In this document: positions 3,613 through 41,870 of the stretch, one piece after another
Layout: every line of letters begins with the position of its first letter
How positions within the stretch are numbered: position 1 is the stretch's first letter
Assembly: GCA_036172245.1 (NCBI GenBank)
Contig: JAYWIR010000002.1
Coordinates: 3,844,001 to 3,908,000, forward strand
Direction: 5' to 3'
DNA from: Raillietiella orientalis
Lineage: Eukaryota
DNA length: 64,000 nt
Notes under the pieces: generated by a model
What the model saw: the letters and a program-made list of their open reading frames with translations, nothing else
The model's database searches: none
What the model was told of the DNA's origin: nothing
Translations under genes and position numbers: made by a program

Positions 3613-4046
3613 TGCAGGATGCCCTGCGACCAGCCGCTGCCCTGGCCGCACTTTGCTGCGTCCGTGGGATCGTGACGTGCTGGAGCGACGTAAGAAGACC
3701 GAGCCACGACAGGGATGCCGTCGAACTTGCAGTCCGCTACCTGCGGATTGCGACCAGATGGCCCCACCTGGGAATCATACGGACGGACCTCGAGGGCATC
3801 CTGCAAAGGATGGACCCTCCTCCCAGTGGTCAGTGATCCCTCCCCAACCCTCCAAAATCTTTTTGTTTGTTATGTTTTATTTTTCTTTTTGTTTCCCCCC
3901 CCCCCATCCCCTTCCGCTGCCGAGGAGAGTCGCGCCGGTCTGCGTACCGGCAACCTGGCAGGTCCTGTTGAGTTGGCCGTAGTGGGGCCTCGTACCACGA
4001 ATTATAGAGAATTTTTGATAAACGCCCCGGCGTGACCGGGTGGCAA
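3613..4046 (+). mobile_element. 5'-truncated LINE copy (ORF2 C-terminus + 3' UTR) flanked by a 17-bp TSD
   Basis: TSD cgaccacgcgaaactcg at 3596-3612 and 4047-4063. Encodes ALRPAAALAALCCVRGIV...MDPPPS like 15560-15793. Ends gataaacgccccggcgtgaccgggtggcaa. Confidence 0.9.
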
Positions 4047-5992
4047 CGACCACGCGAAACTCGGCTTCGGCCTGGTGCAGCTCGCGCCACGCTCGCACGC
4101 ACGCCACACTCGCGCGCGCGCACCAGCTTCCCCGCCTCCTGCGATCGCTCCTCTGGCGAAGTAGGCGGATGACGCCTGCCGGACCGGTCGAACCACCGGA
4201 CAGACTGCAGTCAGGTGGGGATGGGGTTGGTTTCGAGGGGGCGGGTGATGGCAAGCGCGACGGGAAGCGGGCGAGTTGCGCGCTGGGAGGGGGTGAGTTC
4301 GCTCTCGCTTCCGGTTCGGACGCGGGTGAGTGTGGCACACGGCTGGGATTCGCAATGCGAGTCGAGTGCCGTTCCGAATGGCGTTTCGGAGCAGTTTCTG
4401 CTTGCCCACAGGCACGGCACCCGCGCAAGGTGGGTTCGACGGGAGACTTGCATGCAGCTGCCGCCGACTTGCCGGCTGCTCGAATCGACGCTCGCCTTTT
4501 CCCCTCGAAAACGCTCGGCCTGGTGAGGCGTGGCTGGTGAGGCTGTTCTTGGTGCCACCCGTGACGGAAACAGCACATTTGTCCCGTCCAGGTGCGTTTC
4601 GCATCACGGTGATACCCTTTTCGTCACTTTCGACCCCCTTCCCCTCTCCCCAGGACGAATCCGATTCGGCAAGAGCTTGGAAAGTTTCCGAAAAGAATCC
4701 GGCACCCATCGGAATTGCTTTAGTTCGCTGATGTGAATCCGAGTGGAGACGTTTCATCTGCAATGGAAACTGATAATTTGCATCAGCGTTCCAGCGAATG
4801 CTCGGTGGGAGAGACAGCAAGCATGGAAGAGCGAATCGTCGACCTGTTGCCTTCTTTTTTTTTTTTGTTACAAAAAGAAACAAAAAGCAAAAAAGACAGC
4901 AGCGATGGCCGAGCGATGCACGGCGACGGATGAGAGAATCCATGACGAATTGCGAGTGAACGACAAGCACTTTCTCGGGTCAGGCTGGAAAGGCAACAGC
5001 AAGAAACCTCTGCATGTGATGTGATTATTTGACTCGTCATCAATTCGTCGTCCAGGATTCGTTTTTGTTCTCTCTCTCTCTCTCTCTCTTCCCTATGCGG
5101 AACGATGGCTGGACCCGTGGCTGTCATTTCCCGATGGCTTCCATGTAATGGAGATTTGCATGTGATATTTGATGGAAACGGGGAGACGCACGACGGCTGC
5201 TGTGCAACCTCTACGAATCCCCCCGGTGGACTTGAAGGAACCGCCTGCTCGGCAATCCGGCAGGGGTTGCATCGAGCCGTTTCCGGGGTGCGGGCTTCTC
5301 CTCTCTGAACGGCTGAGGGATTCTCGTCAAAGAGCACCGCGTGGGCGTTGTCGGAGGATTTGCGGAGGTCTGCGTGAGGGGGGCACTCTTGTGACACCCA
5401 CCCTCCTTCGCTGCCCGTTGCACCGAGTTGGCTTGCAAAGTGCCAATCCTTGCGTTTGGACCTTCGAAATGCGGTGCTCGACCCTGCAGGTTTCCCCTTG
5501 GGGGGCGGCAAGCAAAAGTACGGACGGAAAAAAGCACCCGGTCACGACTTTCCTAGGCAATCGAAAGCAGTCGTGTGCACTCGAAGGGTAGATTTTCGAA
5601 TTCAGGAATACCGTCGCGGAAGTTGCGTTGCCGAAAGGTGTTTTCCTGAGCGTTGCCAGGGATCGCTGACTCTGGAGGAAGGCCAGCGTGCACCGTGTTG
5701 GGGGTGGTGGGGGGGGGGGGGGCATGTCTCCACGATGACGAACGTGGAGGTCGGCATGGCGTTGGAGACGAACACGGCTTTTGCGACGAGTCGCTCGCTG
5801 CACTCCTTTGAACATCGTGCCGGAAGTGCTCACGGCGGTGGCAATGCCTTTCTGCTTGCGTGCGGTGCGCGCCAAGGTGTTGGCAGAAGGACGGTGGTCG
5901 CTGCTGCTGCCGCCGCCGCCACCGTTCCAAGTTGGCGGCCGTCCGCACGCAGCCCGAGTTGCGGGCGAAGAGCAGCATGGTGAGGGGATGAC

Positions 5993-7825
5993 ATGATCAA
6001 GAAAGGGGATTACGTGTTTGTGAAGCGAGGGGAAGTTACCAAATTGTGTCAGGTTCGACACGAAAGTCAGTAAGTGGGGAAGTTGGTTCCTGCACGATCG
6101 TGAATTCGTGCCACTTCGTTGCAGAACGAGCCAGATCTTGAAAGACAAGATTCGCATTGGCGAATTACTGCACTGCCCGTATGGATCCTCCTTCAAGTTG
6201 GTAAAAGATGCAAAAGAAAACGTTTATAATTTGCAACCGTTGTATGGAGACGCGGAAAACAACATTTCGTCAGGTATTTGAAGGCTGTCTGTTTTGACGG
6301 TAAACCGTACGGGTTGGGGAAAAAAGTGCCACGAGCAGTTTGCCCGTATCTGCATGAGAGGATCGGTTTCATTCGGACCAGGGTAGAGTGTGAGTGAATG
6401 GCTGATCAGCGACTCGTTCCGATGTGCAAACGGAACTTTGCAGTCTTGAACGAAATTTCTTTTGGGATCGCACTGTTTCTTGGAGGAACACACTCCCCAC
6501 TGTGTTTTCCCCATACGAGGGATTCAACTGATTCAATTTGCCATCGTCTCAAAGTGGTGTGCGCATTTGATTTCGTCGATGGAATGCATCCCTATTTAAT
6601 TATGTGAACCCATTTATGCGGCAGATTCTTTTTCCAACTCGAAAGACGTGTTCATCCGAGCCATGATGAGGTCTTCATTGATTTCTTTGTTGAAATATGA
6701 TTCCAGTACCTGGAAAAGCTTTTGGATCTGATAACAGAAACATCATAGATACTCATGGAAAGTCGCAAAAACTAGGGCAAGAGGACATTTTGGCTTTGAA
6801 AGAGCAAGGGTTCATAGGAGATGCCATGGTGGAACATCTGGTTGAAAACAGCAGTACTTATTTAGGAAAAACCGATTTGGCACAAGAAAAATATGTTCGG
6901 AAAAAAAAGAAAAAGTACCACGATGCCGTTGATGTTTTGCATCCTTCCATCGCTCTCCTGTGCATGCACTTATACCAGCAAGATCCTCAGAGCATCCTGT
7001 AAGTTGTGAATGCTGTAATTTGATGGGATTGATCATGTGTGCAGTAATCTGCGAGTGGACACCCTGTCTCAGATGATCTGTTTCTCCAATCTGATGCCTG
7101 GATGTCAGTACTTAGTGTTTGAGTGTGGCTGCATGGGACTCGTGGTGGCAGCTTTGCTCGATAGATTGGGCCAGCACAGCACATTGACTCATATTCATTC
7201 AGAGAGCAAACCAAGCAGGCAAGTGTGCATCAGGTGTGTGCCTGATTGTTGTCGTCTCTCTAGACCTGCATTGCAGATGATGAATTTTGACAGCAAGCAT
7301 CTAGAGCAGCTGCATACTGTTTCGTTAGATGTCTTTGTGAAAGAGTTGGTCCAGTGCCAATCTGCTGTTCCTTTGGATGCTACACATGCTGGTATGCCTT
7401 TGTGTATTGAAGGTACGAGGTAGTCTCCTTACCACACAAAGATTGCCCGGATGTTCAGAAACGTGCAACAGAAACTTACCCTACTAAGCAGTACGATGGA
7501 TTGGTGATTGCTTGCAGGCAGCATCCGGTCAGGATCCTCCCAGTTCTTGTCAGCAGTCTGGCATTGTCCCGACCCTTTGTTATCTTCAATCCTTACGTTG
7601 AAGTGAGTGGATATTCCATGTTTCACTCCTTATCACAGAAAAGCATTGCAGCCGTTGATTGATTGTTATACGCTGTTGCGTAAAAAAAAGTTAGCCGTTT
7701 TGATGAAGCTGACAGAATCCTGGTTGCGTGAATACCAAGTTTTGCCAGAAAGGACACACCCATGTGTAAACATGAGTGGTGGAGGAGGGTATTTGTTGAC
7801 AGGAATCCGTGTCAGCCCAGACTGA
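5993..7825 (+). CDS. TRMT6: tRNA (adenine(58)-N1)-methyltransferase non-catalytic subunit TRM6/Gcd10, copy 1 (about 7 exons)
   Basis: Exons ~5993-6069, 6125-6273, 6707-6998, 7045-7218, 7264-7391, ~7442-7603, ~7652-7825 give MIKKGDYVFVKR...PYGSSF, DNRNIID...QKLGQEDI...FIGDAMVEHLVENSSTY...QEKY..KKKKKY, LRVDTLSQM, DGLVIACRQHP...SRPFVIF and WLREYQVLPERTHP..NMSGGGGYLL, all typical of TRM6. Confidence 0.93.
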
Positions 7826-8627
7826 GTCTTTTCATTTGTCAGTGGCAACAGGATGTTTGTGCAAGGAAAAGAAATGCATTCCAATAAACAGCCTGGTTTC
7901 CTCTTTTGGAATCTGCCCCAATTTGTTTACTACTTTGCAGGTGAATGTGCATGCTTGTTCCCAATTGCTTTGAAAGAAGCGTGTTTGCAAGTGAAGATGA
8001 TGATTTCCTAATGTTATGAAATTCACCCAGTGATGCAAAAGAATCAGGATGTTAACATGGCATTGTCTTTAAAAGCTCGCTTTCCTCTCTGCGTGGAAGA
8101 AAGTCCGTCAGTGTGGGAGCCTTTTTTCTGATTTCCCATGTAAAAGATGGGAGGAAGGAAATGGTGAAGAAGAAATTTTCAAACTCTCAAGCTAACTGGT
8201 GGAAAACACTTTTTCAAAAACTTGTTCTTGGATGTTTTTGCTTGTACATTGTACTCCCTTTCTTGTGCTATCAATGAGTTACCTTGGCAACATCATTACA
8301 TCTTAGTTTAGTGCAGAACTTTGGAAATGTGGATGCTTGCAGCTTCTGCTTCCAACTGTAAAAAGGAACTTTTGCCTGGCATTCGAGTGTGTTGCGTTTG
8401 TGCACCTGCATCTGGTCTATGTGATTGGAAAGATTGGTTTCTGAGGCTGCAATATTTCCTAAACACCGAGTAAGCTGCTGTTTGCTGCGTCGATGGGACC
8501 TGTGTGCTCACCAGCAAGCATGTAAGGGTAAAACCATTTGAGCGTTCGTTTTTGTATGGCATGCATTGTGAAATCGCTCAGTAGATTTTAAACAACTATT
8601 GACATTGGTGTTGCGCTCTAAAAGAGG

Positions 8628-8678
8628 TCAACTGCACTTCCTATTGCTACATGATGTAGCAGTAGGAAGTGCAGTTGA
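8628..8678. repeat. 51-bp near-perfect palindrome (hairpin)
   Basis: tcaactgcacttcctattgctacat-g-atgtagcagtaggaagtgcagttga: 25-bp arms with one T.G mismatch. Duplicated at 18692-18742. Confidence 0.9.
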
Positions 8679-9151
8679 TCCGAAACTCTCTCCTGGAATT
8701 GCATCCGGCGTTGTGATCCGATAGAAGTTTTGGTAGTTCGTGGTTTTCCTTAAGTGCGGGAGTATGGAAGTGCAGTTTGCTTTTTGTGAATACATGCTGG
8801 AAAGTGTGTATTGCAGAGGGGAATTTAGAGGACTCTTATTCCCATGGGAGAAAGAAATGGTGCTACCGCCCGCTCCATCAGTTGCAAAAGTTTCACTGTA
8901 CTTCAGAAACTGACGAAAGGACTGTTGCCTGCTCTTGTCAGAAGAATGCATTCTTGTATGTTTTAGCATTCTTATGGTGTTTGTACTTACTCCATGCTTG
9001 GGAAGATCCTTCATGATTGTGAGAGATCTACTTGCAGCTGGGAATTGGTAAAGCGCTACCGCACACCTTCTTGACACCATCATCAGCTGCCTAACTGCGC
9101 AAAACAATTTTGGGGTGTGTCCCATCTTAGTGGCTATTGGCCTTAGGATGA

Positions 9152-10880
9152 TTATCACCCAGTGATGCCGGAGCATTTATTACGTTTCGTAATGAAAATG
9201 CATTTTTGTATTGGAACCGTTGGCTCTATCACGCTCAGCGAACCAGCCGAAGACCGGTACGCGCACTGGCGAGGTCCGCTTCTTCAATGTGGGGGTAGGG
9301 AAAACAAGACACACAAAAAATGTCAAAAAGACACACAGACACACAAAGCAAAGCAGGAGAGGGGATTTTTACACAGGGAGGGGTGGGGAACCGAGGAATG
9401 GACCATGGTTCACTTCTAGGTGTTCTCGGCATCCAGTTCCAGTGGTATATAGAAGGATGTATCATCTGGTTGGTTTGGACTATTTGTAGAATTTCGTTTT
9501 GTGTGTAAGGATGGTTTCATATAGGAACCTTCCCAGAGTGGTGATTCCTTATCTTGCACTTGAAGGAACCTGTCATGATATCAATGCCTCTTTCTTTTTG
9601 TTGTTTCATCTTATCTCAATGCTACTTTTCACAATGCTATTGTGAAGAAAACTATTCTCTTCATTGTATTGTAGGTGTGTATGTTTTCAACCCCCTTGAA
9701 TAGGCTGCTGAGTCCTTCAGTTCTTTTATTTTATCATCTTAATTCAGAAACCTGATTGCTTGTCAGTCCTTACACATATGGTGTGGCAAGTGTATAAGTA
9801 TTGCTTCATTTGGTTTCCCAAGTGAAAAGGAAAAGTGGAAGATGAAGAATCAATCCAGAAACATGAAGGATAGTTAGTTGGAAAAGAATGGTTGCTTCTC
9901 TGTGGTGGTAGTGTTCGGATTCTTAGTTACTGCAGCAGAATCATGAAACATTTCCTGGAGAACATGGAAATGTCCCTTGGCAGTTTGTACGTCTCCTTCA
10001 TTTTTTTCCAAGCTTTGGAGCACCGACATGCAACTGAACCTCTGTGTTCACCTCTTGACAGGCAAGATATCTGGCTGTGTGCAATCAGAGGGTAAAGGGC
10101 GGGGTTAGCGTTTATCAATATGTCGTGTGCCTCCAACAATATATCCATGCATCTACCCAAGATTCCCAAATCGATTCCCAGGTGCCCTGCCTACTGTGTG
10201 GTGCACTTCTTTTGTCAGCAAAAACTCCACCAGGGTCTTGACAAGATGTAGTTGAGAGGTGCATTTGTCCTATTGGTATTGGCAGAAAACTGTTGGTTTT
10301 CCTTCTCATCCTGCCTACTTCCACAAGAACAGATGTAATTGCTGATGTAGTGTCCAGATTGTGTCAACAGAGTCCATTTTCCTGCATTCATTTGTCCAAC
10401 ATAACCAGTCCTAGGCCAAACACTTGACAAGTCTCTCCCAGTCTTTCCTTTGTTGGAAGCACCATCTCCAGTCTCGATTCTGTGGCACCCACTCTGTATG
10501 GGTCAGTTGCGATGATTGTATCTCAAAGAATTTTTCAACACACTCCGAGGAGTCCCTTGTGGATCCATGTAGTAATGGGTGAAGCTGAACCCCAGTGGCA
10601 TCTTGGTGGTATTCCTCTTCCATCCACCTGCATGCGCTCTCGTGAAGTTTCCCCCATCTCAATGCATTTCTTTGCTTTTGGGTTAACCAGGACAAATGAT
10701 GGGAGGATGGAAAGGGCTGTTGACATGGCAGTTGCGTATGGGCAGTCTGCATGCGAATGATTGTGGAATGAAGTTACCATCAGATAGCAAAATGCAAGGG
10801 AGAGGTCTTTTCGACGAGTCCTGTCCCCTAGGTAGACGAGTGTCCCCTTGGTGGGGATGAGGGTTGAGCTGCATTTCCGT
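9152..10880 (-). mobile_element. Old, CpG-decayed LINE copy (3' terminus at ~9152)
   Basis: Terminal motif aataaatgctccggcatcactgggtgataa on the minus strand at 9152-9181. Minus-strand peptides ALYPLIAHSQISCLSRG (~ALQPAAAVAALCCIRG) and TWIHKGLLG (~RYIPKGLL). The 5' extent is uncertain. Confidence 0.6.
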
Positions 10881-12899: not shown

Positions 12900-13170
12900 T
12901 GGTTCAAAAGAGCTGGCTCCTCCCTCGGGATTTCCCCTCCAGTTTCGGGAAGCAGAAGCTACCGAGAAATTGGAAGTGTTTCCTTTGTCGTTCCTCCAGA
13001 GGAGTCGATCAGAAGCGCTTTCCTTCCGCATTACCTTGGGAAAGAATAAGGACGAGATCCTTCAGAGGCAAACAGAACGATAATTCCTTCCAAAGAGTAA
13101 AGAGGAGACGGACTCTAGCCTCGTAATCCTTCCTAGGTATTATTAGGGTGGCCCCTTCAGGGTTTCTCCC
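12900..13170 (-). repeat. Family B repeat fragment
   Basis: Reverse complement contains gaaaccct...gccaccctaa and gagtccgtctcctc, matching other family B copies. Confidence 0.5.
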
Positions 13171-14954
13171 TAAATGCATCACATGCACCCTCGTGTGGTG
13201 TCACAGCGAAAAGAAATATGTAAGCATTGTCAAGATGCTATGATGCCCTTGTGGATCAAGCAATAGTTCTTGAGTATTTAGCAAATCAAAAAAAAAAAAC
13301 GAAAAACAAAAAAGGCTGGAAGTAAAGCAACAACTAGAAGAACCCAAAGGATTCCCATCATCCTGGGGATCGGACGTGTTGTTTTCTCGCTCCCGGATGG
13401 TGGGTGTTTACTTAATTAATAAGTGAGGGTGAGGTTGTGGAGACTCGGTGGTGGCAAAGGCAGCAATGCCTGACCCACCACCAAGGAAGGTCAGGAGGCG
13501 GTGTCCGCATCGATTCCTCAGGCTATCGAAGTGGGGGAATCCACCTTCACAGAATCGTCCCTCGCACCAGCAAGGGCATGGAACGCCGTGGCTGCGGCTC
13601 TGTCGCCTGCAGCAATGGCAGAACAAAGAAACTACATCGAGTACAACCCATCTCTCTTCTATAAGGTAGGCAATTTGTATTCTCTCAAGAGCGCGAGTGC
13701 CTTTTTGAAGACTGCACGCTCTTAATGTGCCTCAAGAGGAGCTTCTCGCCCTCACCATATGAAGTGAGGGTCAGTTCGTTGAACTGATCTGCAAGGACCT
13801 GATCTTCAGGTGTAGCTCCACGACTTTGAGGACTCTCTTTGTGTTGCGAGACAGGAAGCTCCTCCTGATCACGATGGACCGCTCTATAATGGTCCATCTA
13901 CTCGGCATAACGTTCCGGATGAGCAAAGATGCCGTCCGGAACGAAAGTGAAAAATTCGAAACGGTACACGCGCTAGCCCTCTACCTTCGTATGGATTTCC
14001 TGGCAGCGAGAATCACCGTTCGCGAGGGCTGTGAGTTGCCCCACATACTGCAAGGGAATCAGTGGACTTGTAGTACGTGAGGAAACCCAAGTACTGCGGC
14101 TTTTGCAGCTCTTCGGGTTACCCCAAAAAGAGGTGCCCGAATATTCAATGCCAGCAGTGCGGAATCACGGACTACACCCAAAACGTGTGCCCTCAATGTA
14201 TCATGCGCGACGTTCCCGCCGAAAAAAAAAAAAAAAAAAAAAAGGGAGAACGCGTGGTTAAAACAAAAGAAAAACAAAAACCGGGAAACTCGGTAAAGCG
14301 TCTATTACACCGCCAACCAAAAAGGCTACGCAGTCCTCTGCTTCAGGGGAAACTGAGCATGCCGGGGACGCATACGAAGAGGCTGGATGGACGCTGGTCG
14401 TGAGCAGGAAAAACAAGGCGAAGAAAACCTATACGAAAAGAAGGCGGGACTCCTCACCGGAGAAAGTCTCGCGCTTCGAGCCGAGGAGGCAATAGAGACC
14501 GAAGGGAGCGCCAATTGTCCCCTATTGCTGGAGGCTACCCATCCCTGCGCGGGCGGTATTCCACCGCCAGTTTCCTAGGAGTAAATCCCGGGATCTCTTC
14601 TCGCCACCGGCTACGCGTGGCCTATTGGAACGTAAACGGACTGTGCGACGGCGGCAAGAGACGGGACATAACCTCCACTCTGAGAGACTTTGACCTGGTG
14701 CTGTTGCAGGGGATCCACGTGACCCCCACGCCCACGAAATCGAGAGAATCGCTGGTGGTAGCCTGCTCTGGGGTTGCGGTTCCCTCCGCTCCTGAGGAGT
14801 GGCCTTCCTGCTGGAGCCGGCCGTCGACGCAGCCAGACAGGGCGTGCTCTTCGACGAGGACGGTCGAGTTGGACGGCTTGTGGTCAAGTGGTCTGACACG
14901 ATTGACCTCGTCATCATGAACGTGTACACTCTCAGCGGCAATTGGGCCTACTTA

Positions 14955-16088
14955 AACAAAAAGAAAAACAAAAATCAAAAATAAATAAAGGAACTGGGGA
15001 GAGCGCGGGAAGGGATCACAGTCTGCTGGGTGGATCCGTCATTTCCTCTGGAGGATGACGGCAAGCTCTTCCTGAATGCTGACTTCCAGGTGGGGCCACA
15101 GCGTCGCCGTCCTCAGGAAGCGGAGGGCATATTCGCTGGCATCTTATCGCTGGGTCCTCCCGTCGCGTTGCTCCATGCAGCGACGATCCCGCGTAGGCAG
15201 CACAGGACTGCTAGCGAGACCGCTGGCGGAAGGGGGTCGCGAACGATAGGGGGTCTGATAGCGGCCTTGGAGTTGCCTCCGAAGGTTCCCACAGCCGCGG
15301 CAAAGCATTCCCAGAGAGGCCTGAGAGCAACACAGTCCACTAACAGGTGGGATTGCATTGGGGCCTGCTCTGCAACGCGCGCTGCTTCCACTGGACCCGG
15401 GGGAGAGTGAATCCTGAGTGTGCCCGGTGTGGGGAGAGGGAATCGCTCCCCCACCTTCTTGTTGACTGTGCTGCCCTCCGACCCCTGTGGGAACGGTTTG
15501 GGACGACCCTAGGGCTCCCTACGGGCAGCGCGCCCAGAGACGTTTTCCGCCTCCTCTTCGTGCGGGACGCCCTGCAGCCAGCCGCAGCCGTGGCAGCATT
15601 ATGCTGCATCCGTGGCATCGTGGCGGCGTGGAGTGATAGACGCGACGAAGATGTGGACCAGAACGAGAGGGACGTCATCCCGTATGCTGTTCGCTTCCTG
15701 ACGAGAGCTTCTGGATGGCCCCAGCTGGGTACAATTCGGATGGACTCAAAGGGCTTCCTTCGAAGGATGGGCCCTCCTCCCAGTGCAGAGTGATCCCTTC
15801 CCAGCCCTCCAACTTCTTTTTGTTTTCCTTACTTTTCATTTTTCTTTTTGTTTTCTCCCCCATCCCTTCCACTGCCGAGGAGAGCCACGTCGGGCTGCGT
15901 CCCGGCAGGTCCGGTGTTGTGTGGCCGTTAGTGGGGCCTGGTACCACGTTAGTGGAATGTTTTTTTAATAAACGCCCCGGGATTACCCGGGTGGAAATAA
16001 CAGGTGGGGTGGGATTCTCGCTCCCCGCACCTAACACAGTTAGGGTCGACACCTCACCGAGTCCAGTGGTGACGGCGTGCGTTGCACG
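14955..16088 (-). mobile_element. Antisense LINE 3' fragment inserted in the larger element, itself interrupted
   Basis: Minus strand reads CNARRHHWTR*GVDPNCVRCGERES (16088-16009), then HLLVDCVALRPLW...AVLCCLRGIV...WPHLE (15351-15060), then a T-rich 3' UTR. Confidence 0.85.
15352..15997 (+). mobile_element. 5'-truncated LINE copy with 11-bp TSD
   Basis: TSD taacaggtggg at 15341-15351 and 15998-16008. Encodes the CCHC-type finger CARCGERESLPHLLVDC. Ends aataaacgccccgggattacccgggtggaaa. Confidence 0.9.
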
Positions 16089-19000
16089 GAAGACCCCAAT
16101 GCAGCACCAACAGCGCCGACCGAAGATCCTATCACGGTGGCGGAGGTCATCTCCGCCATCGGAAAGCTCAAGAGGCGGAAAGCACCAGGAGAGGACGGTC
16201 TGCCTGAGGATTTCTACCAAGGCTTCGCGGCAGAGCTTGCCGCTCTGGCACATCGGCTATGCACATTGATTCGTGAACCGAGCTCCTGGAACGCATAGGA
16301 TTCCCGGCATTCTTCTTGGCCTATCTGTGTTCCTCCTGGAGTTTCGCACTCGTTAACGTCTGTTTCAACGTCCGGCACGTGAATGGTGTGTCAGTTCGCG
16401 GCGGCGTAAGGCAAGTTGACAGCCTGAGCCCCCTGCTCTTCAGCATCTACTTCGAGTTGGTGCTGAGAGCAAAAAGGGGGACTCTGGCAGCCCTGCTGAG
16501 CTCGTGTCCGGAAACGTTTTCCGAGTCGATTTATGCAAACGATCTTCTGCTGCTAATCCCCATGTCCACCCCGGCGTCTGCACTCAAGCGCTTCTTCGAG
16601 TTGCTCAGCCTCGGGACTGGACTGTGGTGAACAGGGAGAAGTCGTACATAGTGTCGGTAGGTGCGATGAGGGTCGGACGGTCGGACTGGAATCCACTTGG
16701 GAATCCCCACGGGCGGGTGCTCTAAATACCTTGGCGTTCCGTTGGGGGACTTCTGCGTAGCGGAAACCAGGTCCGACCGTCTTAAAAAGGTAGAGTTGGC
16801 GATCGGCCCGTTCCAGAACGGCAAGTTTTGCTTACCGGAACGGGCCACGGTGTGCAACTCGTTTGTGGATCCCCTCCTCCGCTCCCTGCTTTTTGTTTGC
16901 CACGCCCCACCAAATGTCAAGAGGAAGACCGAGGACCTCCTCAGAAGAGTCTTACTCAGGAAGTCCAGAGTCTGTCTCAAAGACTTGTGTGCTCCGCGCA
17001 GGGATGATGGACTGGGCCCGCTTACAATGGAAATGATGGAGCGTCAGCTCCAATTCAGAAGACTTACTCTAGCGGCGCGAGTATGGACCACGTCCGGGTG
17101 CAGGCCAGAACGGCACCTCGCAAAGAGCGCAACCGGCCGCGAGCAACTCACATCCTTCCTCGTCGCTCGCGAGAGATTGCCGAGGCGTTGCGGATACCAA
17201 CTCCACCAGATGGTTGCCCTGGTGGAGAACACCTCGATCTCCTGCCTCCCCGAGAACTGGACTGCCTGGCTCCAGGAGTCGGTTTGCGCCCGAAGAAAGA
17301 ACGGCGCGAGCGAGGCGTGGTACGCCTGCCTGCAGCGAGACATGAACACTCGCAGGTCGTTGGAGGAGATCGTCCGTAACCCGGAGAATATGCGGTGAAC
17401 TCTTCTACCCCCCTTGCCATAGTGCTGCCTTCCATAACAGACGCAAGGGACAGCGTGATCCCGGCAAGGTGGGAAGTGACGCACAGAAGCGGAGACGAAA
17501 CTTCTGGGCAACTCGGGAGGTGACGGACAACTGAGACCCCGAGTGTCTCACCCCAATTTCACGCTGGGGAGAGCTGGTCGGTATCCCACCGGAGTATGTG
17601 AACTGGGCTCCAGCGTGCTGGTACAGTGCAACCCTCCCACTGAAGTGGTAGGAATTGGCGTTTCTGGACTCGCAAGGGAGAATCTCGTGCAAGCGCACCT
17701 TCATCAGTCTGGACAAGGGGGAGTATGGATGCCGTTCAGTGTGGCAGGTACGGGAAGGAAACACTCCCGCACCTGCTGTTGAACTGTGCTGCCCTCCGAC
17801 CATTTGGGATTGCCTCGCGAGCATCCTAGCAATCCCAGCGGGCGGCCCCAGAACATTTGGAAACACCTCTTCGCGCGTGGTGCCTCTGCCTTCAGCTCAG
17901 TTCCTCGTAGTTCCCTGCTGCGTCCGCGGAACCGTGGCGGCCGGGGACGCGGGAAGGAGAGGTCGGAATAGCAGAGACACCCCTCCACCCCTCCCCGTGT
18001 AAAAATCCCCTCTCCTGCTTTGCTTTGTGTGTCTGTGTGTCTTTTTGACATTTTTTGTGTGTCTTGTTTTCCCTACCCCCACATTGAAGAAGCGGACCTC
18101 GCCAGTGCGCGTACCGGTCTTCGGCTGGTTCGCTGAGCGTGATAGAGCCAACGGTTCCAATACAAAAATGCATTTTCATTACGAAACGTAATAAATGCTC
18201 CGGCATCACTGGGTGATAATCATCCTAAGGCCAATAGCCACTAAGATGGGACACACCCCAAAATTGTTTTGCGCAGTTAGGCAGCTGATGATGGTGTCAA
18301 GAAGGTGTGCGGTAGCGCTTTACCAATTCCCAGCTGCAAGTAGATCTCTCACAATCATGAAGGATCTTCCCAAGCATGGAGTAAGTACAAACACCATAAG
18401 AATGCTAAAACATACAAGAATGCATTCTTCTGACAAGAGCAGGCAACAGTCCTTTCGTCAGTTTCTGAAGTACAGTGAAACTTTTGCAACTGATGGAGCG
18501 GGCGGTAGCACCATTTCTTTCTCCCATGGGAATAAGAGTCCTCTAAATTCCCCTCTGCAATACACACTTTCCAGCATGTATTCACAAAAAGCAAACTGCA
18601 CTTCCATACTCCCGCACTTAAGGAAAACCACGAACTACCAAAACTTCTATCGGATCACAACGCCGGATGCAATTCCAGGAGAGAGTTTCGATCAACTGCA
18701 CTTCCTACTGCTACATCATGTAGCAATAGGAAGTGCAGTTGACCTCTTTTAGAACGCAACACCAATGTCAATAGTTGTTTAAAATCTACTGAGCGATTTC
18801 ACAATGCATGCCATACAAAAACGAACGCTCAAATGGTTTTACCCTTACATGCTTGCTGGTGAGCACACAGGTCCCATCGACGCAGCAAACAGCAGCTTAC
18901 TCGGTGTTTAGGAAATATTGCAGCCTCAGAAACCAATCTTTCCAATCACATAGACCAGATGCAGGTGCACAAACGCAACACACTCGAATGCCAGGCAAAA

Positions 19001-19544
19001 GTTCCTTTTTACAGTTGGAAGCAGAAGCTGCAAGCATCCACATTTCCAAAGTTCTGCACTAAACTAAGATGTAATGATGTTGCCAAGGTAACTCATTGAT
19101 AGCACAAGAAAGGGAGTACAATGTACAAGCAAAAACATCCAAGAACAAGTTTTTGAAAAAGTGTTTTCCACCAGTTAGCTTGAGAGTTTGAAAATTTCTT
19201 CTTCACCATTTCCTTCCTCCCATCTTTTACATGGGAAATCAGAAAAAAGGCTCCCACACTGACGGACTTTCTTCCACGCAGAGAGGAAAGCGAGCTTTTA
19301 AAGACAATGCCATGTTAACATCCTGATTCTTTTGCATCACTGGGTGAATTTCATAACATTAGGAAATCATCATCTTCACTTGCAAACACGCTTCTTTCAA
19401 AGCAATTGGGAACAAGCATGCACATTCACCTGCAAAGTAGTAAACAAATTGGGGCAGATTCCAAAAGAGGAAACCAGGCTGTTTATTGGAATGCATTTCT
19501 TTTCCTTGCACAAACATCCTGTTGCCACTGACAAATGAAAAGAC

Positions 19545-23323: not shown

Positions 23324-23757
23324 TTGCCACCCGGTCACGCCGGGGCGTTTATCAAAAATTCTCTATAATTCGTGGTACGAGGCCCCACTACGGCCAACTC
23401 AACAGGACCTGCCAGGTTGCCGGTACGCAGACCGGCGCGACTCTCCTCGGCAGCGGAAGGGGATGGGGGGGGGGGAAACAAAAAGAAAAATAAAACATAA
23501 CAAACAAAAAGATTTTGGAGGGTTGGGGAGGGATCACTGACCACTGGGAGGAGGGTCCATCCTTTGCAGGATGCCCTCGAGGTCCGTCCGTATGATTCCC
23601 AGGTGGGGCCATCTGGTCGCAATCCGCAGGTAGCGGACTGCAAGTTCGACGGCATCCCTGTCGTGGCTCGGTCTTCTTACGTCGCTCCAGCACGTCACGA
23701 TCCCACGGACGCAGCAAAGTGCGGCCAGGGCAGCGGCTGGTCGCAGGGCATCCTGCA
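23324..23757 (-). mobile_element. Mirror copy of the TSD-flanked LINE fragment at 3613-4046
   Basis: Part of the right arm, with the same TSD on both sides, so the insertion predates the duplication. Confidence 0.88.
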
Positions 23758-26700
23758 CGAGTTTCGCGTGGTCGCCTGGTAGCCGAGCGAAAGGCTGCGA
23801 ACGAAGAGCGCGCGCTGGGCGGCCGTCGACGTTTCGCACTGCCCCTGGCAACGGGCGGGAGGCGCTCACCGGCGGAAGCCGGAAACCCTCGGATGCCCCC
23901 GGGAGCCGGCCTCCGGGATTGAAAGTCGACCGCCCGGTTTCTTTCCAGGGCATGAAGGAGCTCTTCGGGGTTCCCCTCCGGTCGTGGAACATGGAGGGCT
24001 CCGTTCTCAGGGAGGGCTCCCTCCGTCGTGGTGTGACGGTTGATGCTCCCCCCGGAAGTTTCACCTCCGGAGCGCCGGAAGCGCTCTGCTCGCTTCGGAA
24101 AGGCGTCCCTTCGGGGCTCTCTTCAGGCGAGAAAAAACAAGGGGCGGACTCGATCCGGGTGCGCCGTCCGGACGGAAAATTCGGGAGCGTGGGTTTGTCG
24201 AGTTGCCATCGGAGAAGAAATGGGGAGCGTCTTTGCCTCCGGTCGTCCCTGCGAAGACAACCAGGACGAGGGTCCCCCCAGTCCTCTCACGCGTGAGAAA
24301 GGAACGGACTCCTTCCTCTGGGACCTTTTCGGATTCACAGGGCGATCCTGCCGTGGCATGACCCCCAATAACGTGAAGGGTCGCGCGCGCCTTCGGGTGG
24401 TGTGGACAGTGTTGAAGAGCTCCGTGGGCCCTCCTCCTTAGGGTGGCGAGAAGGGTTTCGGTAGATGGGGAAATAAAAGAGGAAAAGTCCAAGAAAATAA
24501 AAGTGTGAAGAATAGCTGGTGGATGGAATGTTGAGAAGGTCTTCCAGTCCTTTCGCGTGAGCACTGGTTGTGACCTCGTCTACCAGCTGGTCCATTTTTC
24601 TGAATTTTATATTTGAATTTTTAACCCTGTGTTTTCCTTGAGTGTACCACACTGATTGCACTGCTTGGTAGCAGGTACTCCTAGATTCGAACGAATGTGC
24701 TTGGGAGTGAGATTTCCGCTAAGCATGAATGACCTTTTTCTATGGTATATGTGTTTCACTGTAAATAATATTGCACCATAAGCCGTCTCCTGTCCCCGGA
24801 TGCAAAGGATTCCTTCTCGCTGTCTTCTTTCTTGTCTGCTGTAGCCACGCACATTTACCAAGATGAAATGAACGCTTTTTAAGATAAATAAATAAAAAAA
24901 ATTCGCTGGTTTGATCGTTCACGCACGTTGTTTTCCGGTTCCTGCACCAGGAGTTCACTGGGACGTGAATGCTGAATGTCAACTTTCAGATGTCATTTCA
25001 GATGAAGTCTCCCTGCTGAGATTCAGTCTATGCAATCATTGAACTAATGCGAACGAAACTATCGAAAAATTCCAATGAAGCCAGATTCTATTTTAATCCT
25101 TATTAAGTTATTGCTGAATTCGTCTTGTCGTGGCCTGAGAAGGAATGCCAGCGAGATCGGGGCTTTCTGAACATAAATTATCGATTTTCTCTGAATCTGA
25201 TTCTAGGTACTCTTTCAAGGAAGCAGGCTTGATCACCAACGATTGCTATCAAGTTAATTAATTCCAAACCCACCCCTAGGAATACCTATGAGAATCACTG
25301 AGACCACATTTGATAGGTCACACCCCCACGTGCAGTCCATCACAAGCTTTCCTCCTGTTTTTCTGACGCCCAACGAAAGAGATGAGTTCGAAAGTGAGTT
25401 TTGGGACGCTGAATTTCGAACTTCCGTATGTCTTATTAGGACCGATCGAAATCATCGATCGAGTTGAATTTAAGAAATATGCGAAAATGATCAGCGCAAT
25501 TGGGATACAAGAAAACTCAAGATTAATTCACTATTCGAGAGTAATTACTGTTTTTCTTTGCCTTCATTCTGTGTATTCGCGTTTCGATGCTAATATGGAT
25601 GAAATTTGAAGTTCCATTATCCAAATGCAGGGAGCCTTCCTGATAAAAGAAAACTACCATAATAATTAAATTGAATTTTTTGTTTTCATAAAATCCACAA
25701 GTTTTCCATAGAGACACATCGGTTAAAAATTCCATTAAATTGTTTCCAGGGTACCTACCCGTTTCTATTGCACGTTGACATAACAGCGTAGAGATAGGGA
25801 TTGCCATCAGAATATACCCATTCAAAATTGCTTATTCTCGAACAATAGCAAACACCACTCGTTCAAAACAAAGCTGACAACAGTTGCCACTAAATGCAGT
25901 TCCATTTATAAGCTATTCCGAATATCAAAAACTGCTTACTTTCCAATCTTGAAAATGATTTCAGAAGTAAAATGAATGCCAATACTCATTAAGGTGCCTA
26001 GTGATACGTAAGAAGAATATTTCGAATGCCATCCTGAGGATAATATAATTTTTTTTTTTTCAAAAATGAATCGCTTAGAAGAAAAGGCAGAAAAATTTGA
26101 GACAGAAATTATGAATTTACTAAGCTGATTTCCTAAGCTCAATTTGGCACATCAGAATTGCTCGGGATCGCAGGTTTACTACATTTGAAAAATCTTTTTC
26201 TAATCCATTCTTAAAGACCGGCAAGGAATCAGTTTTTTGAAAAATTATTAGCAAAAGTTTCTGTAATGAATAATATAGCCTCTCTTCGAAAAACATGCTC
26301 ACTTCGATACAATTTAAAAAAAAATTCTTGAAAACATCCATTGCAAGAATACACGAGAATTTGATGTTTTTATCGCCTCATTCTATCAGAACTCATTTTT
26401 GAATAATTACTGAATTTGGTTCATAGCAACTGTGGTTGGATTACTCTGATAGATTGCCAAAACGAAGGAACTCTATAGTTCATCGTAAAGACAACAAAAA
26501 AAACGATTTATGTTTAAAGGTTATGACAGGAGGGTTCTGTTTACAAAATTTTACAAACTAAGGTGTCCCATAATTTTTAATCTGGCAACAAGAATAATGT
26601 TATCGCTATTTTCTGATATTTCAATGATCTGTGTTATGAACTTAATTATAATCTGGGATAAGACAGAATTTTAGCAAACTGCCCAAATATTTTTTTTAAA

Positions 26701-35294: not shown

Positions 35295-35619
35295 GCTCCA
35301 CACGTTTCGAGTGCACTCGAGCAACTTTCCTCTTCCACACAGAGCAGCGGGTAGTGTTGCACTCGACAAGGAAGAAAAAGCGCCCTTGAGGATCGCCATC
35401 GTTCCCTGAGGCAATCAGATAAAAAACTCATAACCACGGATTATTATGATTCAATCTAATAAGTTAGATTTTAGCATCGTTTCACCCTAACTCCAACAAA
35501 CATACAAAACAAAACACAATGATACAAAACACGAACTGTGATTTCTGTTAACAAGTAACGGCATTCAAACGACGATTTTGCTTTTCGAAAATCTACTTCA
35601 AGTTTTCTTCTCAGGATCA

Positions 35620-36335: not shown

Positions 36336-38254
36336 CACCGCATGGTGCCACGCACGGAAGCCTTAACCACAAAGCCTCTGACTTGGGCTGGGAAATTAAC
36401 TTCAAGCTTTCCTTCTCAGAAACATATGAAGCATTTCCAATGCGCATTGCTTTTGCCAAATCTATAGGTCAGAGGCAAAAGGAGCACCTGCAAAGTCCAC
36501 ATTCTGAGATGGATTGACTAATGCATGAATGGTACTCCTGACATTGCAATGTGAAGCGCATTGCCAGCATTCGGCAACCACTGAGATATCCTGCCCTATT
36601 TCGTTTTATTGATGTTCATGAAGAGTGATCACATTCCGGATAGTATCAAGAAATCCGTGATCGAAAGTGCTGCTGGTAGGCTCATCGCTCACTTCCTGTT
36701 CCTGTTGAGCTCCATCAGTTCGCTTGTGTCTCCGGCAAGGTTACTTCTTTTGAGGAAAGTTCAACTGATCGTCCTTAACAGTATTCTCAGTATTGAACAT
36801 TGTTTTCACCTGGTCATGCCAGGGCGTTTGTTTCTATGTTGAATACTGATGTGGGACTTTGAAAGAGGCTGCAGGTTTGTTTCACTGGATTTCCAAACTT
36901 CAATTCCGAGACCGATCGCAGCGGAGCAACGAAATGCAACCAGATTATCGTTGGCAAACAACTCTTCTGGGCTCAATTTTGGTTGCCTAGGTTTCTGCAG
37001 TGATCTTCACTCGTCTGATTATCTGAAACCTTATGTTGTGGGTTAAGGAAGGCAAAAACTTGCTAGACATTTGCCAACCACAAACCGCTGCATGTTTCCC
37101 AGTTAACCTTGAGACATCAAGAGACAGGTATGTAGCTACCGAGGCAGCGTACGCCTCATGTCACTCGCACGCTCTTTTCTGAGAAGTTCAAAATACGGCG
37201 ACTTTTCCTTCGCGTCTGCTTGCAACGATTGTTCTAGAGAAGAGTGGATGTGTTTTTGTATTCACGCGAAAGGCGCCAGATCTCCATTGGCACTGCATTA
37301 TTTGAGGCGTATGTAAAAGAGCCAGTTGGGAGTCCAGGCATCCACATGTGAGATAATGGTACTAGAGACGAAGGTGAGCGGAGGAAGAGAAGATTCCGTG
37401 ACCGTTCGTGGTAGACTCCGCTCTTTCTTAACGCAATGTTTCCGTCGCCGACCTCTCTCTCAACACGATTATTTGGTCTTATCCGCGTTCTGGGCACCAG
37501 GTCAGTTCTTCTGGAGTGAGGAGGAGAGAACAGGGGATCCAGCTTGTTTCTCGAATCTTTTGCCGCCTCCTGGCCATTCCGTGGGAGCCAACCGCGTCCT
37601 GTAAGCATTGCCTGAACCAAGCCTACTTTCCAAAAAAGGTTCTGTCCCACTATACGGGTTCAGTATTCCCAACCAATGAAGACCCTTCCCCATTCCTTCC
37701 TATCATGGGCAAAGGGAATAGGTAGCGTGTGCTGATCCTGTAGGAGTTCAACCCTCTCGAAACTGTGATTTCTCCAAACTCTTCAAGTTAGGGGTACTCC
37801 AGGAAGGGACCACTCTTTGAATCCAGAGAGTGCTCCTGAGAAAGGAGTTCGTTCCTCTCACGCTTGGGAGAGAGCCCCGAAGGGAACCTCTTCCTTGTTC
37901 TCTCTGGAGGGACCCCACGGATGGGCCGCTTCACTTTTTATTCTCCAGAGGGAACCTTTGCAGGTTCCTCCTCTAAAGACAACCCTGAAGGGATGTTTCC
38001 AAATTTTCTCTGAAAGTTCGCTCCCAAAGGGAGCAGCGCGCTTCTTGATCCTCTGGAGAGGCATCAATCCACCAGCTCCATGGTACGAGATGGTGGGGTT
38101 CCTTCCGAGGGAGATGGAGATGGCTCCACTTTCACAATATGGGGGGGACCTCGAAGGGAACCGGCTCCATGGTTCCTAAAAGCACCCCGGAAAGTCAACT
38201 TCCAATCCCGGTCACTCAGCGGAGGCATTCGGTTTCCGGCCTCCACCAGTGCCA

Positions 38255-41200
38255 GGGCGGCGGCCTAGGCCTCCTGACGCTGGAGCGGATGGAGCTGCAG
38301 CTCCAGTTCAGACACTTGCCCTCGTGGCAATCCTCTGGAGAACTACCTGGTGTCAACCTGCATGTCTTCTCGTGCAGCACGCCACCGGCAGCGTGGGACT
38401 GCGACCTTCCTTGCCCGCCGTCCACGCAGTCTCATCCGCTGCGCACTGCACCTTCAGCAGGTAACCACGCTGGCTAGGAAAAACAAATGAATCTCGTGCT
38501 GCCCCGCGAACGGTGGTACCTGGTTGCAAGGAACCGTGCGCAAGTGGGCGAGAATACAGGAGCCAAGCATGGAACAGGTGAGACGACGTTTCCTGTACAC
38601 GTGCAACGGCAACTGCACGCTCCGGGAGATCCTGGAAGATCCTGCGAAGAGTGCGTGACAAGCAGAACCTCTCTCGTCGCCGAGCTTCCCGTCCTTAGGA
38701 TAAACACATGGTCAGAAGCCTTACGGCTAGATGGGAAGGTACTATGGAAATGTCCGGAAGTAGAAAAGGAGTGGGCGAGTGGACGACGAACCAGCCCAAC
38801 GACGCCGCGATCCTGATTGCTCGAACTCGTGAACTTTTGCGCTGGGGCGTGCTACTGGGTATTCCGAAGGAAGTCACGCAGTAGCCCCCGGTGCTCATGA
38901 ACTCCCGCACCCTCCTCTTAAAGTGGCAGGAGTCGGCGTTGATTCTGCTGCACTGGGGTCTCCCGTGCAGGGAGTTCCCAAGGCAGCACTGGACACGTGG
39001 GTGTGTGGATTCAAACTATGCAAGGTGAGGGGAGCGGGAACCCTCCCACTCCTCCTAGTGGACTGTGTTGCCTTCCAAGGGATGATTTCCGGGACCCCCG
39101 GTGGCAACGCTAGAGATGTGATGCGGTTCCTTTGTGCGGGATGCCCTGCAGCCGGCCGCAGCACTTGCAGCACTTTGCTGCCTTCGTGGGATCGTGGCGG
39201 CATGGAGCGGACTCCAATGACAGGGATGCCATCCACTTCACTCTCCGCTTTTTATGAATAGCGGTCAGATGGTCCTACCTGGACATTTGTATAAAGCAAG
39301 ACCTTGCCGACATTCTCTAAAGGATGCAGAGAACCGCTCCCTACAGGACGTGATTCCTTCCCGCCCCACCGCCCCCAGAATTGTTTTATTTTTGTTTTGT
39401 TTGCTTTCTTTTTGTTTAGCCCGTCCCCTCTGCTGTCTTGGTGATCTTTATCGGTCTGCGAACCGGTAACACAGCAGATTATCAGCAGGTAACACTTGTG
39501 GGAGGGGCAGTCCGACTGGATCCGCCTGGGGATTCCGACCGCTTCGTCCATCCAATATCTGGGCGTTCCGCTGGGGAACATCAGCCCAGTGGAAGTGTGG
39601 TCGGACTGCCTTTGGAAGGCTACGAGTGCTCTGAGCCCGTTCCACCATGGCAGGTTCGTCCTGCCGGAGCGGGCCGCGATATGGAACACCTTCGTTGCCC
39701 CCCTCTTGCGCCCCCTGCTTTTTGTTTGCCCGCTTCCCTACTCGGCCAAGCTCCAGGCGCACAGCCTGTTGAGGAACGCTCTGTGGGGACCTGCGAGGTC
39801 CAGGATCCGCCTCAAAGACTTGGCGGCTCAGCGTCGGGATGCTGGCTTAGGCATCCTGACGCTGGAGAGAATCGAGCTGCAGGTGCAGCTTCGGATGTTG
39901 GCCCTGTGCGCCAACCTTTGGTCCACTCCGTGGTGCGCTCCCACGCGCCTGCTCCTGCGGCGCTGCACCGGCAGCGATGGACTTCTGTCGCTCCGGCCGC
40001 ACACGGAGCGCTCCACGAATAGCTTCGGTTTCCCCTTGAAACCGCTCTACCGGCTCCTGGAAGCCCAGGAATGGATCTCCTGCCGCCCAACGAACTTTGA
40101 CGCCTGGCGGCACGAACCGTTGCATGCCTGGGCAAAGCACCAGGATGTTTCACTCCTGGAACTCCGTTGAGCTCACCTCTCCCCGTACTGCACGGTGGAT
40201 GAGGTGTGCAACAGCCAGGAGAAGTGGACTCGCCTGGCCATCACGCCCCTCGCCGACGCGCTGTCAGCCCTCAGGGCAAGAGATGACAGCTGCGAACCGG
40301 CGAGATGGGAAGTCGCCTGCACCATCGCAGGAACAACACGACCCATAGGCGGCTGGAGGACTTGCGAGCTGGCAGACGCAGCCACGCCTCGCTACATCCC
40401 GAAGGGACTCCTTCGATGGAGTGAACACTTGAGTGTGGCCCCCGAAGAACTTGTGGTCCCTCCCTCCTGTTTGAACACTTCTGTGTTCCCCCTTTCGTGG
40501 AAGCAGGACGTGATCATGCTGGTGCATTGGGGTTTTCACTCCAACCAGCGCACGAACCGTGTTTCCGGGGGAGTTGTCTCCCCAAACTGCAAGCGGTGCG
40601 GGGAAGTGGAAACGCTCCCGCACCTGCTCCTGGACTGCGGTGCCCTCCTAGGACTTTGGCGGAGGCTGGCCTCAGCTCTCCTGCACCAGGGGGACACCGT
40701 GAGAGACTTGATGCGCCGCTTCTTCACGCCAGGCGGCCTGTCTTTGGGTGCTCTCGTTGCAACCGTGTGTTGCACCCGCGCCGTCGACAAGGCCCACCGA
40801 GAGCTGGAGAAGCTGGCCATCCTTCGTCAGCCCACCGGATTAGCCAGCGCAAGCATGTCGTCGGCTGCCGAGTGGGCCCATCTGCCAGAGGACGTGAGGA
40901 GAGAGATCGCCGGCATCCATCGCCGGTTTTGAAAGGAAGGAACGGACTCACCAAAGACCCCTGTCCCCTGCCCTCCATATTTTTATTTTTATTTTTTTAC
41001 AGTAGTGTATATGTGGTCCCCTCCCTCCCGTTCCGGACTTTTGGCATACCGACCTGCGTGTCGGGGATCCCACCCCCTTCGTCTCTTGTTTTTCCTTTGT
41101 CCAGGAACTCTGTTCCCGGATAGTTTCTTAATAAACGCCCCGGCGTACCCGGGTGATAAACAGCAGATTATCCGCAGAAAGGACGTGGTAGGATCAACGG

Positions 41201-41270
41201 TCCAACCACAAAAATTGTAAATGTTTATTTTATTTTAAATAAACACCCCAGCGAACCCGTGTGAAAAGCT
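38255..41270 (+). mobile_element. 5'-truncated, decayed LINE copy (outer), probable 7-bp TSD
   Basis: agtgcca at 38248-38254 and 41271-41277. Encodes GGLGLLTLERMELQLQFR and LLLVDCVA. The 3' UTR resumes at 41178 and ends aataaacaccccagcgaacccgtgtgaaaa. Confidence 0.8.
39489..41159 (+). mobile_element. Younger 5'-truncated LINE (diverged subfamily) inserted in the 3' UTR of the outer copy, 18-bp TSD
   Basis: acagcagattatcagcag (39471-39488) vs acagcagattatccgcag (41160-41177). ORF2 frame 39496-40932 has a single in-frame TGA (40168-40170), QYLGVPL and CKRCGEVETLPHLLLDC. Ends aataaacgccccggcgtacccgggtgata. Confidence 0.92.
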
Positions 41271-41382
41271 AGTGCCACACCCGAATATAGGCCAACAGAG
41301 TTATCTTGCATGGGGAACTCGAACCCATTTCGAGTTCCACTCGAGCCCACAACGCACCCATTTCTCTGGCATCGATCCTCTA

Positions 41383-41870
41383 TTTTCACCCGGTCACTCC
41401 GGCGTATTTATTGTAAAAAAAAATATTTACAAAAAAAAAACAGTTATAAAATATAAAAATGCCTTTCTTCGCGTTAGTTTCACTTCGTAGTGGCGTCGAT
41501 TCTCCACGTGGAGATACAAACCCGCAATGCTTGGTACCATGCGCGGAGGCCTCAGCCACACGGCCGCCAACGTGGGCGTGTCTATGGCAATCCGTAAGAC
41601 ATGTTGGCAGAGATCTCGTTCCAAGTCGCCGACTGAAGGTGACAGAGATTCTCTTGAAACTCCTGCACTTCTGGACGAGAGACCTCCCAGGAGACTTCTG
41701 CTGACCTGCAATGCCCAAGACTGTGGTGCTTTTATCGTATCCAGCTACCACTTTTCTGGGGAGGAACGGGGGGCATCCTGCAGATGCTGAGGCAGCAGCA
41801 ATCGGGCATTGCTCGAAGGAACCGGGGTTCGCGGTGCGCTCTCTGCGTCCAGACCAAGCTCCTTGTCCCT
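41383..41870 (-). mobile_element. Decayed antisense LINE 3' fragment
   Basis: Minus-strand terminus aataaatacgccggagtgaccgggtgaaaa. Peptide GGLS...DLE...LAAVWLRPP...IAGLY aligns with GGLS...ELE...SAAEWAHLP...IAGIH of the 39489-41159 copy. Confidence 0.7.

Follow-up and report, generated by a model that had tools for sequence, protein, structure and literature searches.

We analysed a 64,000-nucleotide stretch of the Raillietiella orientalis genome (assembly GCA_036172245.1, contig JAYWIR010000002.1, positions 3,844,001 to 3,908,000; hereafter the window), which carries copies of a family of long interspersed nuclear elements (LINEs) that end in AATAAA and a short hairpin instead of a poly(A) tail. 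An earlier note, made from the letters of the window, had reported six such termini sharing a motif of about 26 nucleotides (nt), and all six were found at the positions and with the letters it gave. A slightly looser pattern matched seven times in the window, against a mean of 0.00 in 100 shuffles; these are five independent termini and two mirrors, and the decayed copy at 41238 escapes this pattern. Both mirrors derive from an inverted duplication of 6.4 kb (2949-9386 and 17985-24421, 99.9% identical). The note had rightly taken the match at 9152 for a mirror, and overlooked the second one at 23353 (- strand). The duplication is either recent or an artefact of assembly or amplification; a 51-nt palindrome lies in it at 8628-8678. 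The copies and their parts are the following:

3613-4046, + strand: 5'-truncated LINE copy, 92% identical to copy L119, with the C-terminus of open reading frame 2 (ORF2; stop at 3836) and a 3' untranslated region (3'UTR); 17-bp target duplication at 3596-3612 and 4047-4063
3934-3951, + strand: upstream hairpin H1, a 6-bp stem enclosing a conserved CTGCGT loop
4017-4046, + strand: 3' terminus, in which the poly(A) signal takes the variant form GATAAA (4017-4022) and a bulged hairpin (4023-4042) precedes the tail GCAA (4043-4046)
9152-9181, - strand: mirror of the 18190 terminus through the inverted duplication, not independent
14590-18219, + strand: decayed long ORF2-bearing copy, broken up by nested copies, with endonuclease (EN) at 14590-14950 and reverse transcriptase (RT) from about 16130; terminus 18190-18219, tail ATAA
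14951-16120, - strand: fragment of a sibling, nested in antisense within the EN part of the preceding copy; its own terminus is missing
15352-15997, + strand: 5'-truncated copy nested in that fragment; terminus 15967-15997, tail GAAA; 11-bp target duplication at 15341-15351 and 15998-16008
23324-23353, - strand: mirror of the 4017 terminus through the inverted duplication, not independent
36803-36832, - strand: decayed seventh terminus, tail AAAA
38250-41267, + strand: older copy, into whose 3'UTR the 39489-41159 copy has inserted; it bears the long hairpin H2 (41185-41209) and ends in a decayed terminus (41238-41267) with the tail AAAA
39489-41159, + strand: younger 5'-truncated copy, about 94% identical to copies L111 and L113, in which ORF2 runs from the RT thumb to a stop at 40932, the H1 loop occupies 41054-41059 and the terminus (41130-41159) has the tail ATAA; target duplication of 18 bp at 39471-39488 and 41160-41177, with one mismatch
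41383-41412, - strand: terminus of an antisense copy, tail AAAA, with a decayed ORF2 C-terminus just upstream

The region 14590-18219 is thus a nest of LINEs three deep. Target duplications were also sought at the termini at 18190, 41238 and 41412, and none was found there.

The 3' end across the genome

In the 210-Mb genome the terminus motif has 1774 exact matches, against 0 for its reversed control, and a pattern with the stem left free gave 2908 matches against 215. NN-AA directly follows the motif in 1628 of the 1774 copies, and at least seven A within 3 nt of it occur at only three sites, one of which duplicates an A-rich target. The family therefore lacks the AATAAA plus poly(A) end of the relaxed, vertebrate type of L1, as the earlier note had claimed, and the "few A-rich bases" it had described between stem and duplication are indeed a short tail, now sharpened to exactly four nucleotides. 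Among 29 loci found by protein match only, the UTR was present in 28, the motif in all 28 of these, and the NNAA end in 26 of 28. In the subfamily with an AAAA tail, AAAA was present in 95 of the 100 copies listed (of 105) and a fifth A in none of the 100 (hand tally), which is not what a start templated by poly(A) would be expected to give.

Candidate target duplications of 10-17 bp were detected at 29 of 117 termini, compared with 5 of 117 for a displaced control, many of these loci being drawn from a list that required NNAA, so that the genome-wide counts are the unbiased figures. The seven 10-mer candidates are probably mostly chance matches. The duplication starts at offset 4 after the stem in 15 of the 29 candidates and at offset 3 in five; as duplications begin 4 nt past the stem, the end of the LINE is defined to one base. 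In the offset-4 cases the left flank lacks the last A, which is consequently absent from the target. AATAAA is retained in 155 of 165 termini, in a scan that itself demanded a near match, and both 5' truncation and target duplications of 10-20 bp are present, as in the L1 superfamily. The motif is confirmed as the true 3' end of an L1-superfamily LINE family that encodes an apurinic/apyrimidinic endonuclease (APE) and an RT.

Other origins of the terminus were rejected. Erosion of poly(A) in old copies does not explain it, since copies with open ORF2 frames of 1100-1200 codons also end in NNAA; the long poly(A) that the earlier note had considered for young copies is accordingly not seen in them. 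The 1774 copies genome-wide rule out an artefact of the inverted duplication, and a Helitron or DIRS end is ruled out by the position of the motif behind an APE-RT ORF2 and by its flanking duplications. Rfam scans of the window and of copies L111 and L119 gave no match to the terminus, which is thus not a catalogued RNA, and a metagenome scan for it returned 0 matches.

Proteins and 3'UTR hairpins of the family

Full-length copies (L113, L115) are about 5.8 kb long and comprise a 5'UTR of about 115 nt, a CCHC-bearing ORF1 and an APE-RT ORF2 of about 1190 amino acids (aa), with target duplications. Pfam detected the L1-superfamily domains Exo_endo_phos and RVT_1 on L111, and zf-RVT weakly on L119. 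Two C-x2-C-x4-H-x4-C motifs were read in ORF1 of L111, where Pfam zf-CCHC stayed below its cut-off (E 0.003-0.2) and the Pfam scan gave no match to the ZCCHC3 RBD. Human LINE-1 ORF2p is the nearest solved protein both by sequence (E 1e-43, compared with 1e-16 for R2) and by fold (E 3e-44, TM 0.59, for a predicted model with a mean confidence score, pLDDT, of 82). RTs of seven subfamilies are 58-82% identical to that of L111; protein P0304, 79% identical, nests within the family in the tree, and the nearest named proteins are 27-34% identical. RT trees, whose outgroup labels are partly provisional, put the family within the L1 group and separate it from R2 and jockey/CR1-like RTs (FastTree support 0.82 and 0.78). 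In the first tree (108 RTs) the clade is basal in the L1 group; in the second (87 RTs, with 36 unnamed rows dropped and 14 representatives and one pseudoscorpion protein added) it stands beside fish, tick and pseudoscorpion Tx1-like proteins (support 0.93). Neither tree has an authenticated Tx1 reference, "Tx1-like" resting on ZCCHC3-type domains in P0006 and a link of such domains to Tx1. By its domains, the trees and the best match in the PDB the family belongs to the L1 superfamily; the Tx1 part of the earlier L1/Tx1 assignment is possible, the two trees differing in placement.

From 5' to 3', the 3'UTR contains H1 (loop CUGCGU), the long hairpin H2, a U-rich stretch, AAUAAA, the bulged terminal hairpin and NNAA. 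By upstream sequence the 165 termini form 45 clusters, and the UTRs cannot be aligned between subfamilies, so that, with RTs as divergent as those above, the terminus is indeed common to diverged subfamilies, as first noted. In an alignment of 38 hand-picked, mostly intact rows of the 165 termini, 97% of the cells of the terminal stem are paired, compared with 27-51% for slid partners. The changes seen there are pair-keeping (wobble or A-U) and the loop varies freely, in line with the earlier description of a mostly kept stem and variable loop. Where a change in a terminal copy breaks the stem, it is mostly C-to-T or G-to-A at a CpG, a hint that the elements may be methylated.

H1 lies 70-115 nt upstream of AATAAA, its CTGCGT loop being recognisable within one mismatch in 29 of the 45 clusters. 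In 28 rows chosen by the loop only (one row, the terminal hairpin of a nested copy, was dropped), 82% of cells were paired, compared with 68% after shuffling, all five pairs showed double-sided change, and 0 of 500 shuffles scored as high. H2, between H1 and AATAAA, is present in many clusters; its pairing (51 of 65, against 39 shuffled) carries little weight, as the test was anchored on complementary ends and is partly circular. The upstream 100 nt fold with a median z of -1.2, and with z below -2 in 12 of 45 clusters. A conserved 3' stem-loop with compensatory changes, as expected of a stringent LINE, is therefore found in H1, and the terminal hairpin is conserved without compensation. The stringent hairpin end proposed earlier stands in so far as the 3' end is structured as in stringent LINEs; the covariation sits in the upstream H1, which had gone unseen, and in sister lineages, and not in the terminal stem.

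Insertion targets, sister lineages and the ORF2 tower

Each subfamily has its own target consensus of 3-8 nt right after NNAA: in one subfamily the tail is followed by TCG in 88 of 100 copies, and others prefer (A/T)CA(A/G)C, NCAG(T/C) or a first C. Duplications consist of 11-18 bp of the subfamily-specific target, and in all five duplication-bearing copies of the TCGA subfamily a G stands 5' of the nick. Targets often begin with T or C, and the AA of the tail therefore cannot pair with the primer. LINE coding sequence flanks 65 of the 165 termini, in antisense at 47, in samples that over-represent long copies from LINE clusters and in which some identical flanks may be duplications. In one cluster, 22 of 49 copies are inserted antisense at ORF2 codon 79 (EN) of diverged siblings, and another subfamily targets the KAFD codons of the RT. 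The fixed sibling codons hit in antisense are codon 79 in EN, codon 503 in the DAKL motif and codon 588 in the KAFD motif, at loci L066-L090, L074, L112, L128 and L186-L188 and in the window at 14590-18219. Target sequence preference and an ORF1 with CCHC knuckles, both features of Tx1, are thus present.

Two other LINE groups of this genome, A and C, have RTs about 29-32% identical to that of L111 and form one clade with the family (support 0.99 in both trees). Group A ends in AATAAA, 4 nt, a different bulged hairpin and NNAA (145 matches against 1 for the control, with NNAA fixed in the pattern). In 100 listed rows its free inner pair is C-G in 67, G-C in 18, a wobble in eight and unpaired in seven, and never C-C or G-G (hand tally). 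Across an alignment of 15 group A and C termini two pairs are changed on both sides, and the group C hairpin is strong (z -4.1). Sister families form tandem arrays at one small nuclear RNA (snRNA) site.

Sister-lineage LINEs headed by U1 snRNA sequence (L101, L103 and L108-L110, L103 by eye) or by U4 snRNA sequence (L094-L096, L099, L100, L107 and L125) were identified with Rfam, the heads scoring 52-133 bits, and such LINEs are possibly undescribed. A decayed ORF2 C-terminus of this snRNA-headed lineage lies in the window at 42534-43045 (- strand). Two further RT elements adjoin RNA genes: one without an APE domain, Utopia-like, ends at a U2 snRNA gene (L121, 7116-7293, - strand), and one, R2-like, adjoins 28S rRNA (L105, 1-1636).

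The whole lineage also has a tower 35-45 aa shorter than that of other L1/Tx1 proteins. With two partial rows left out, the distance from the baseplate W to the PIP-helix Y is 88 aa in the family (six rows), 90-91 in group A (five) and 80 in group C (two), compared with 118-134 in 29 of 30 outside homologues and, by our count on the alignment, 126 in human L1; the full-length tower, or EN linker, of vertebrate L1 is thus lacking (88 against 126 aa). An alignment-free measure of the linker gave 191-194 in the five measurable rows of this genome and a median of 237 in 101 outside proteins. In a further set, two of 129 measurable proteins were short; in the tree these two fall, together with pseudoscorpion proteins, into a clade of their own.

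In the alignment, the missing stretch corresponds to the tower helices of human L1. These helices are residues 301-370, a 302-363 deletion keeps RT activity, and they are needed for transposition (PMC10830420); poly(A) is contacted by W365 and F366, human ORF2p requires about 20 A, and its start sites scatter once a template stem is unpaired (PMC10830416). ZfL2 has a 3'-end-binding region between EN and RT (PMC5135761). From these alignments, loss of the tower helices would have accompanied loss of poly(A) dependence, and the shortened poly(A)-gripping region suggests a different, more precise start of each new copy.

Elsewhere in the window a 19-nt unit is repeated in tandem about 14 times (48205-48468), and an open frame at 48745-50088 (- strand) resembles a vesicular inhibitory amino acid transporter (VIAAT-like; Pfam Aa_trans, E 3e-90), its three best matches all being crustacean (69%, 66% and 64% identical). 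By these matches the host, an arthropod, lacks a close relative in the database searched.

Template recognition and known systems

We favour, with modest confidence, a host-specific L1-superfamily lineage with stringent, structure-based template recognition, in which ORF2p would dock on the 3'UTR hairpins and start cDNA in a fixed register, with no pairing of poly(A) to oligo(dT). Directed by AAUAAA, the RNA would end some 22 nt downstream of it, immediately behind the stem; cleavage usually falls 10-30 nt from AAUAAA. ORF2p would bind the hairpins, the endonuclease would nick its preferred short sequence, and cDNA would begin at a register set by the protein, 4 nt 3' of the stem and without pairing of poly(A) to a T tract, either on a poly(A) tail entered internally, at its second A, or on an RNA trimmed to NNAA. 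Recognition of the hairpin by the RT itself is putative. More tentatively, and as something possible rather than probable, a deep arthropod lineage on the L1/Tx1 side may have fully replaced poly(A)-primed target-primed reverse transcription, deleted the poly(A)-binding tower helices, come to read a multi-hairpin 3'UTR with a one-base start and no primer pairing, and radiated onto sibling RT/EN codons or U1/U4 genes.

Several observations weigh against this account. The terminal stem shows none of the compensatory change that the earlier note had looked to (0 of 7 pairs double-sided, with a covariation score equal to that of shuffles, in 38 rows), and for want of it the stem could be read as sequence. 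Taken singly, terminal hairpins show no folding advantage over shuffles (z -0.48 to -1.61), so that their support is conservation and not energy. H1 was found in only 29 of 45 clusters, its hexamer occurs in 26 of 45 real stretches but also in 12 of 44 control stretches, and its shuffle control takes no account of relatedness among the rows. In group A the pair change may be one event, and group C continues with CCCT instead of NNAA in the two termini seen, so that AA is not universal. As for the tower, 8 of 101 outside proteins also have short linkers (<215), among them a pseudoscorpion L1-like clade (P0015, P0045, P0312, P0323) that has shortened its EN-to-RT linker independently, and the exact residues lost vary with the alignment, in a model with pLDDT <50 at 298-323.

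Alternatively, the hairpin might set the RNA end rather than bind the RT, host cleavage or exonuclease trimming leaving a uniform, non-polyadenylated end 4 nt past the stem, at which a relaxed ORF2p would start. Histone mRNAs have such an end, a stem and 4 nt ending in A without polyadenylation, which the family's terminus resembles; sister families are located behind snRNA genes, and snRNA transcripts mature without polyadenylation; long A tails are almost absent. We nevertheless consider this unlikely, as AATAAA is kept in 155 of 165 termini (near match required) and in both sister lineages, Rfam gave no match for the window, L111 or L119, trimming is rarely uniform to a single base, yet 0 of 100 copies have a fifth A, and the covarying H1 is left unexplained.

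Still less probable, in our judgement, is that the transcript reads through into the flank and anneals to the nicked target by the first bases of that flank, as happens in site-specific LINEs that are co-transcribed, so that RNA-DNA pairing would account for both the fixed end and the target preference. The subfamily-specific consensus after NNAA, the 22 of 49 copies at one homologous site and the sister tandem arrays at one snRNA site would fit, but RNA pairing cannot dictate the G found 5' of the nick in five of five TCGA-subfamily copies, the conserved AATAAA argues for cleavage, and no clear 3' transduction was seen among the 29 duplication candidates. That ORF2p or a host protein reads the terminal motif as primary sequence, with only H1 and H2 as functional structures, is the least probable of all: absent double-sided change, shuffle-level covariation and weak folding scores speak for it, but the stem is 97% paired against 27-51% for slid partners, its changes keep pairs while the loop is free, and in the sister lineages a hairpin with another sequence occupies the corresponding position, two pairs there being changed on both sides.

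The structure-based reading has partial precedents. The earlier note had thought the element unusual and perhaps undescribed: hairpin-bearing stringent L1s are known from monocots and Chlamydomonas and some L1s without a 3' repeat are catalogued (PMC3472496), and the terminus itself was not found described. A full-text literature search turned up no tailless, tower-shortened L1 and no such terminus; Repbase, Dfam, subscription papers, the Tx1L primary paper and the supplements of PMC4494074 (Tx1 junctions) lay outside its scope and could hold a precedent. Monocot 1a L1 (LINE1-1_ZM) and Chlamydomonas L1-1_CR, both of the L1 clade, resemble the family in having a conserved 3' end and a diverged body, and a hairpin with conserved loop and compensatory stem, like H1; L1-1_CR differs in ending in poly(A), both have partners among short interspersed elements, and the excerpts of these sources report no one-base-precise tailless end or short tower (PMC3472496, PMC3747384). 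Table 1 of PMC3472496 lists 224 of 233 flowering-plant L1 families as ending in poly(A) and 9 of 233, together with 5 of 15 green-algal L1 families, without a 3' repeat.

Members of the Tx1 clade (Tx1L, Keno, Kibi, Koshi, Tx1-Mar) share the APE, target preference and insertion into transposons and snRNA genes; their targets are DNA transposons, long-terminal-repeat elements, microsatellites, U2, U5 and 5S, compared with sibling LINE codons, U1 and U4 here, and SINEU, thought to be mobilised by Tx1-Mar, carries a poly(A) tail (PMC4494074, PMC4640811). Fish and tick Tx1-like proteins have full towers, unlike this lineage. The stringent L2 and R1 elements UnaL2, ZfL2-1, ZfL2-2 and SART1 need a bulged 3' stem-loop for template recognition, and a bulged stem-loop is seen, in sequence, here too; they belong to other clades and keep terminal repeats or poly(A), and the family is without a repeat (PMC5135761, PMC3747384).

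The family bears on how L1-type ORF2p chooses its RNA and start site. A natural lineage that has lost both tail and tower helices offers thousands of junctions precise to one base, on which the relation of tower, poly(A) and start site can be tested directly. It also carries the question of stringent versus relaxed recognition in the L1 clade over to animals, and an APE LINE with a short target and no tail may serve as a lead for precise insertion templated by RNA. Vertebrate L1s surveyed all end in AATAAA and poly(A) (PMC5381506). Human LINE-1 (PDB 8UW3, 8SXT), the closest solved protein, is alike in its 10-18 bp duplications and AATAAA, and differs in needing about 20 A, in its long tail at T-rich nicks and in its full tower (PMC10830416, PMC10830420, PMC7617806). 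R2 has a structured 3'UTR bound by its N-terminal extension, no tower and site specificity, and differs in its restriction-like endonuclease, single ORF and 28S target (PMC10830420, PMC12503042); the likeness to R2 is functional convergence only. Should the more tentative reading above hold, the family would be a precise inserter in the manner of R2, with an L1 protein of the APE type as its base, and would serve as a natural experiment on the role of the L1 tower.

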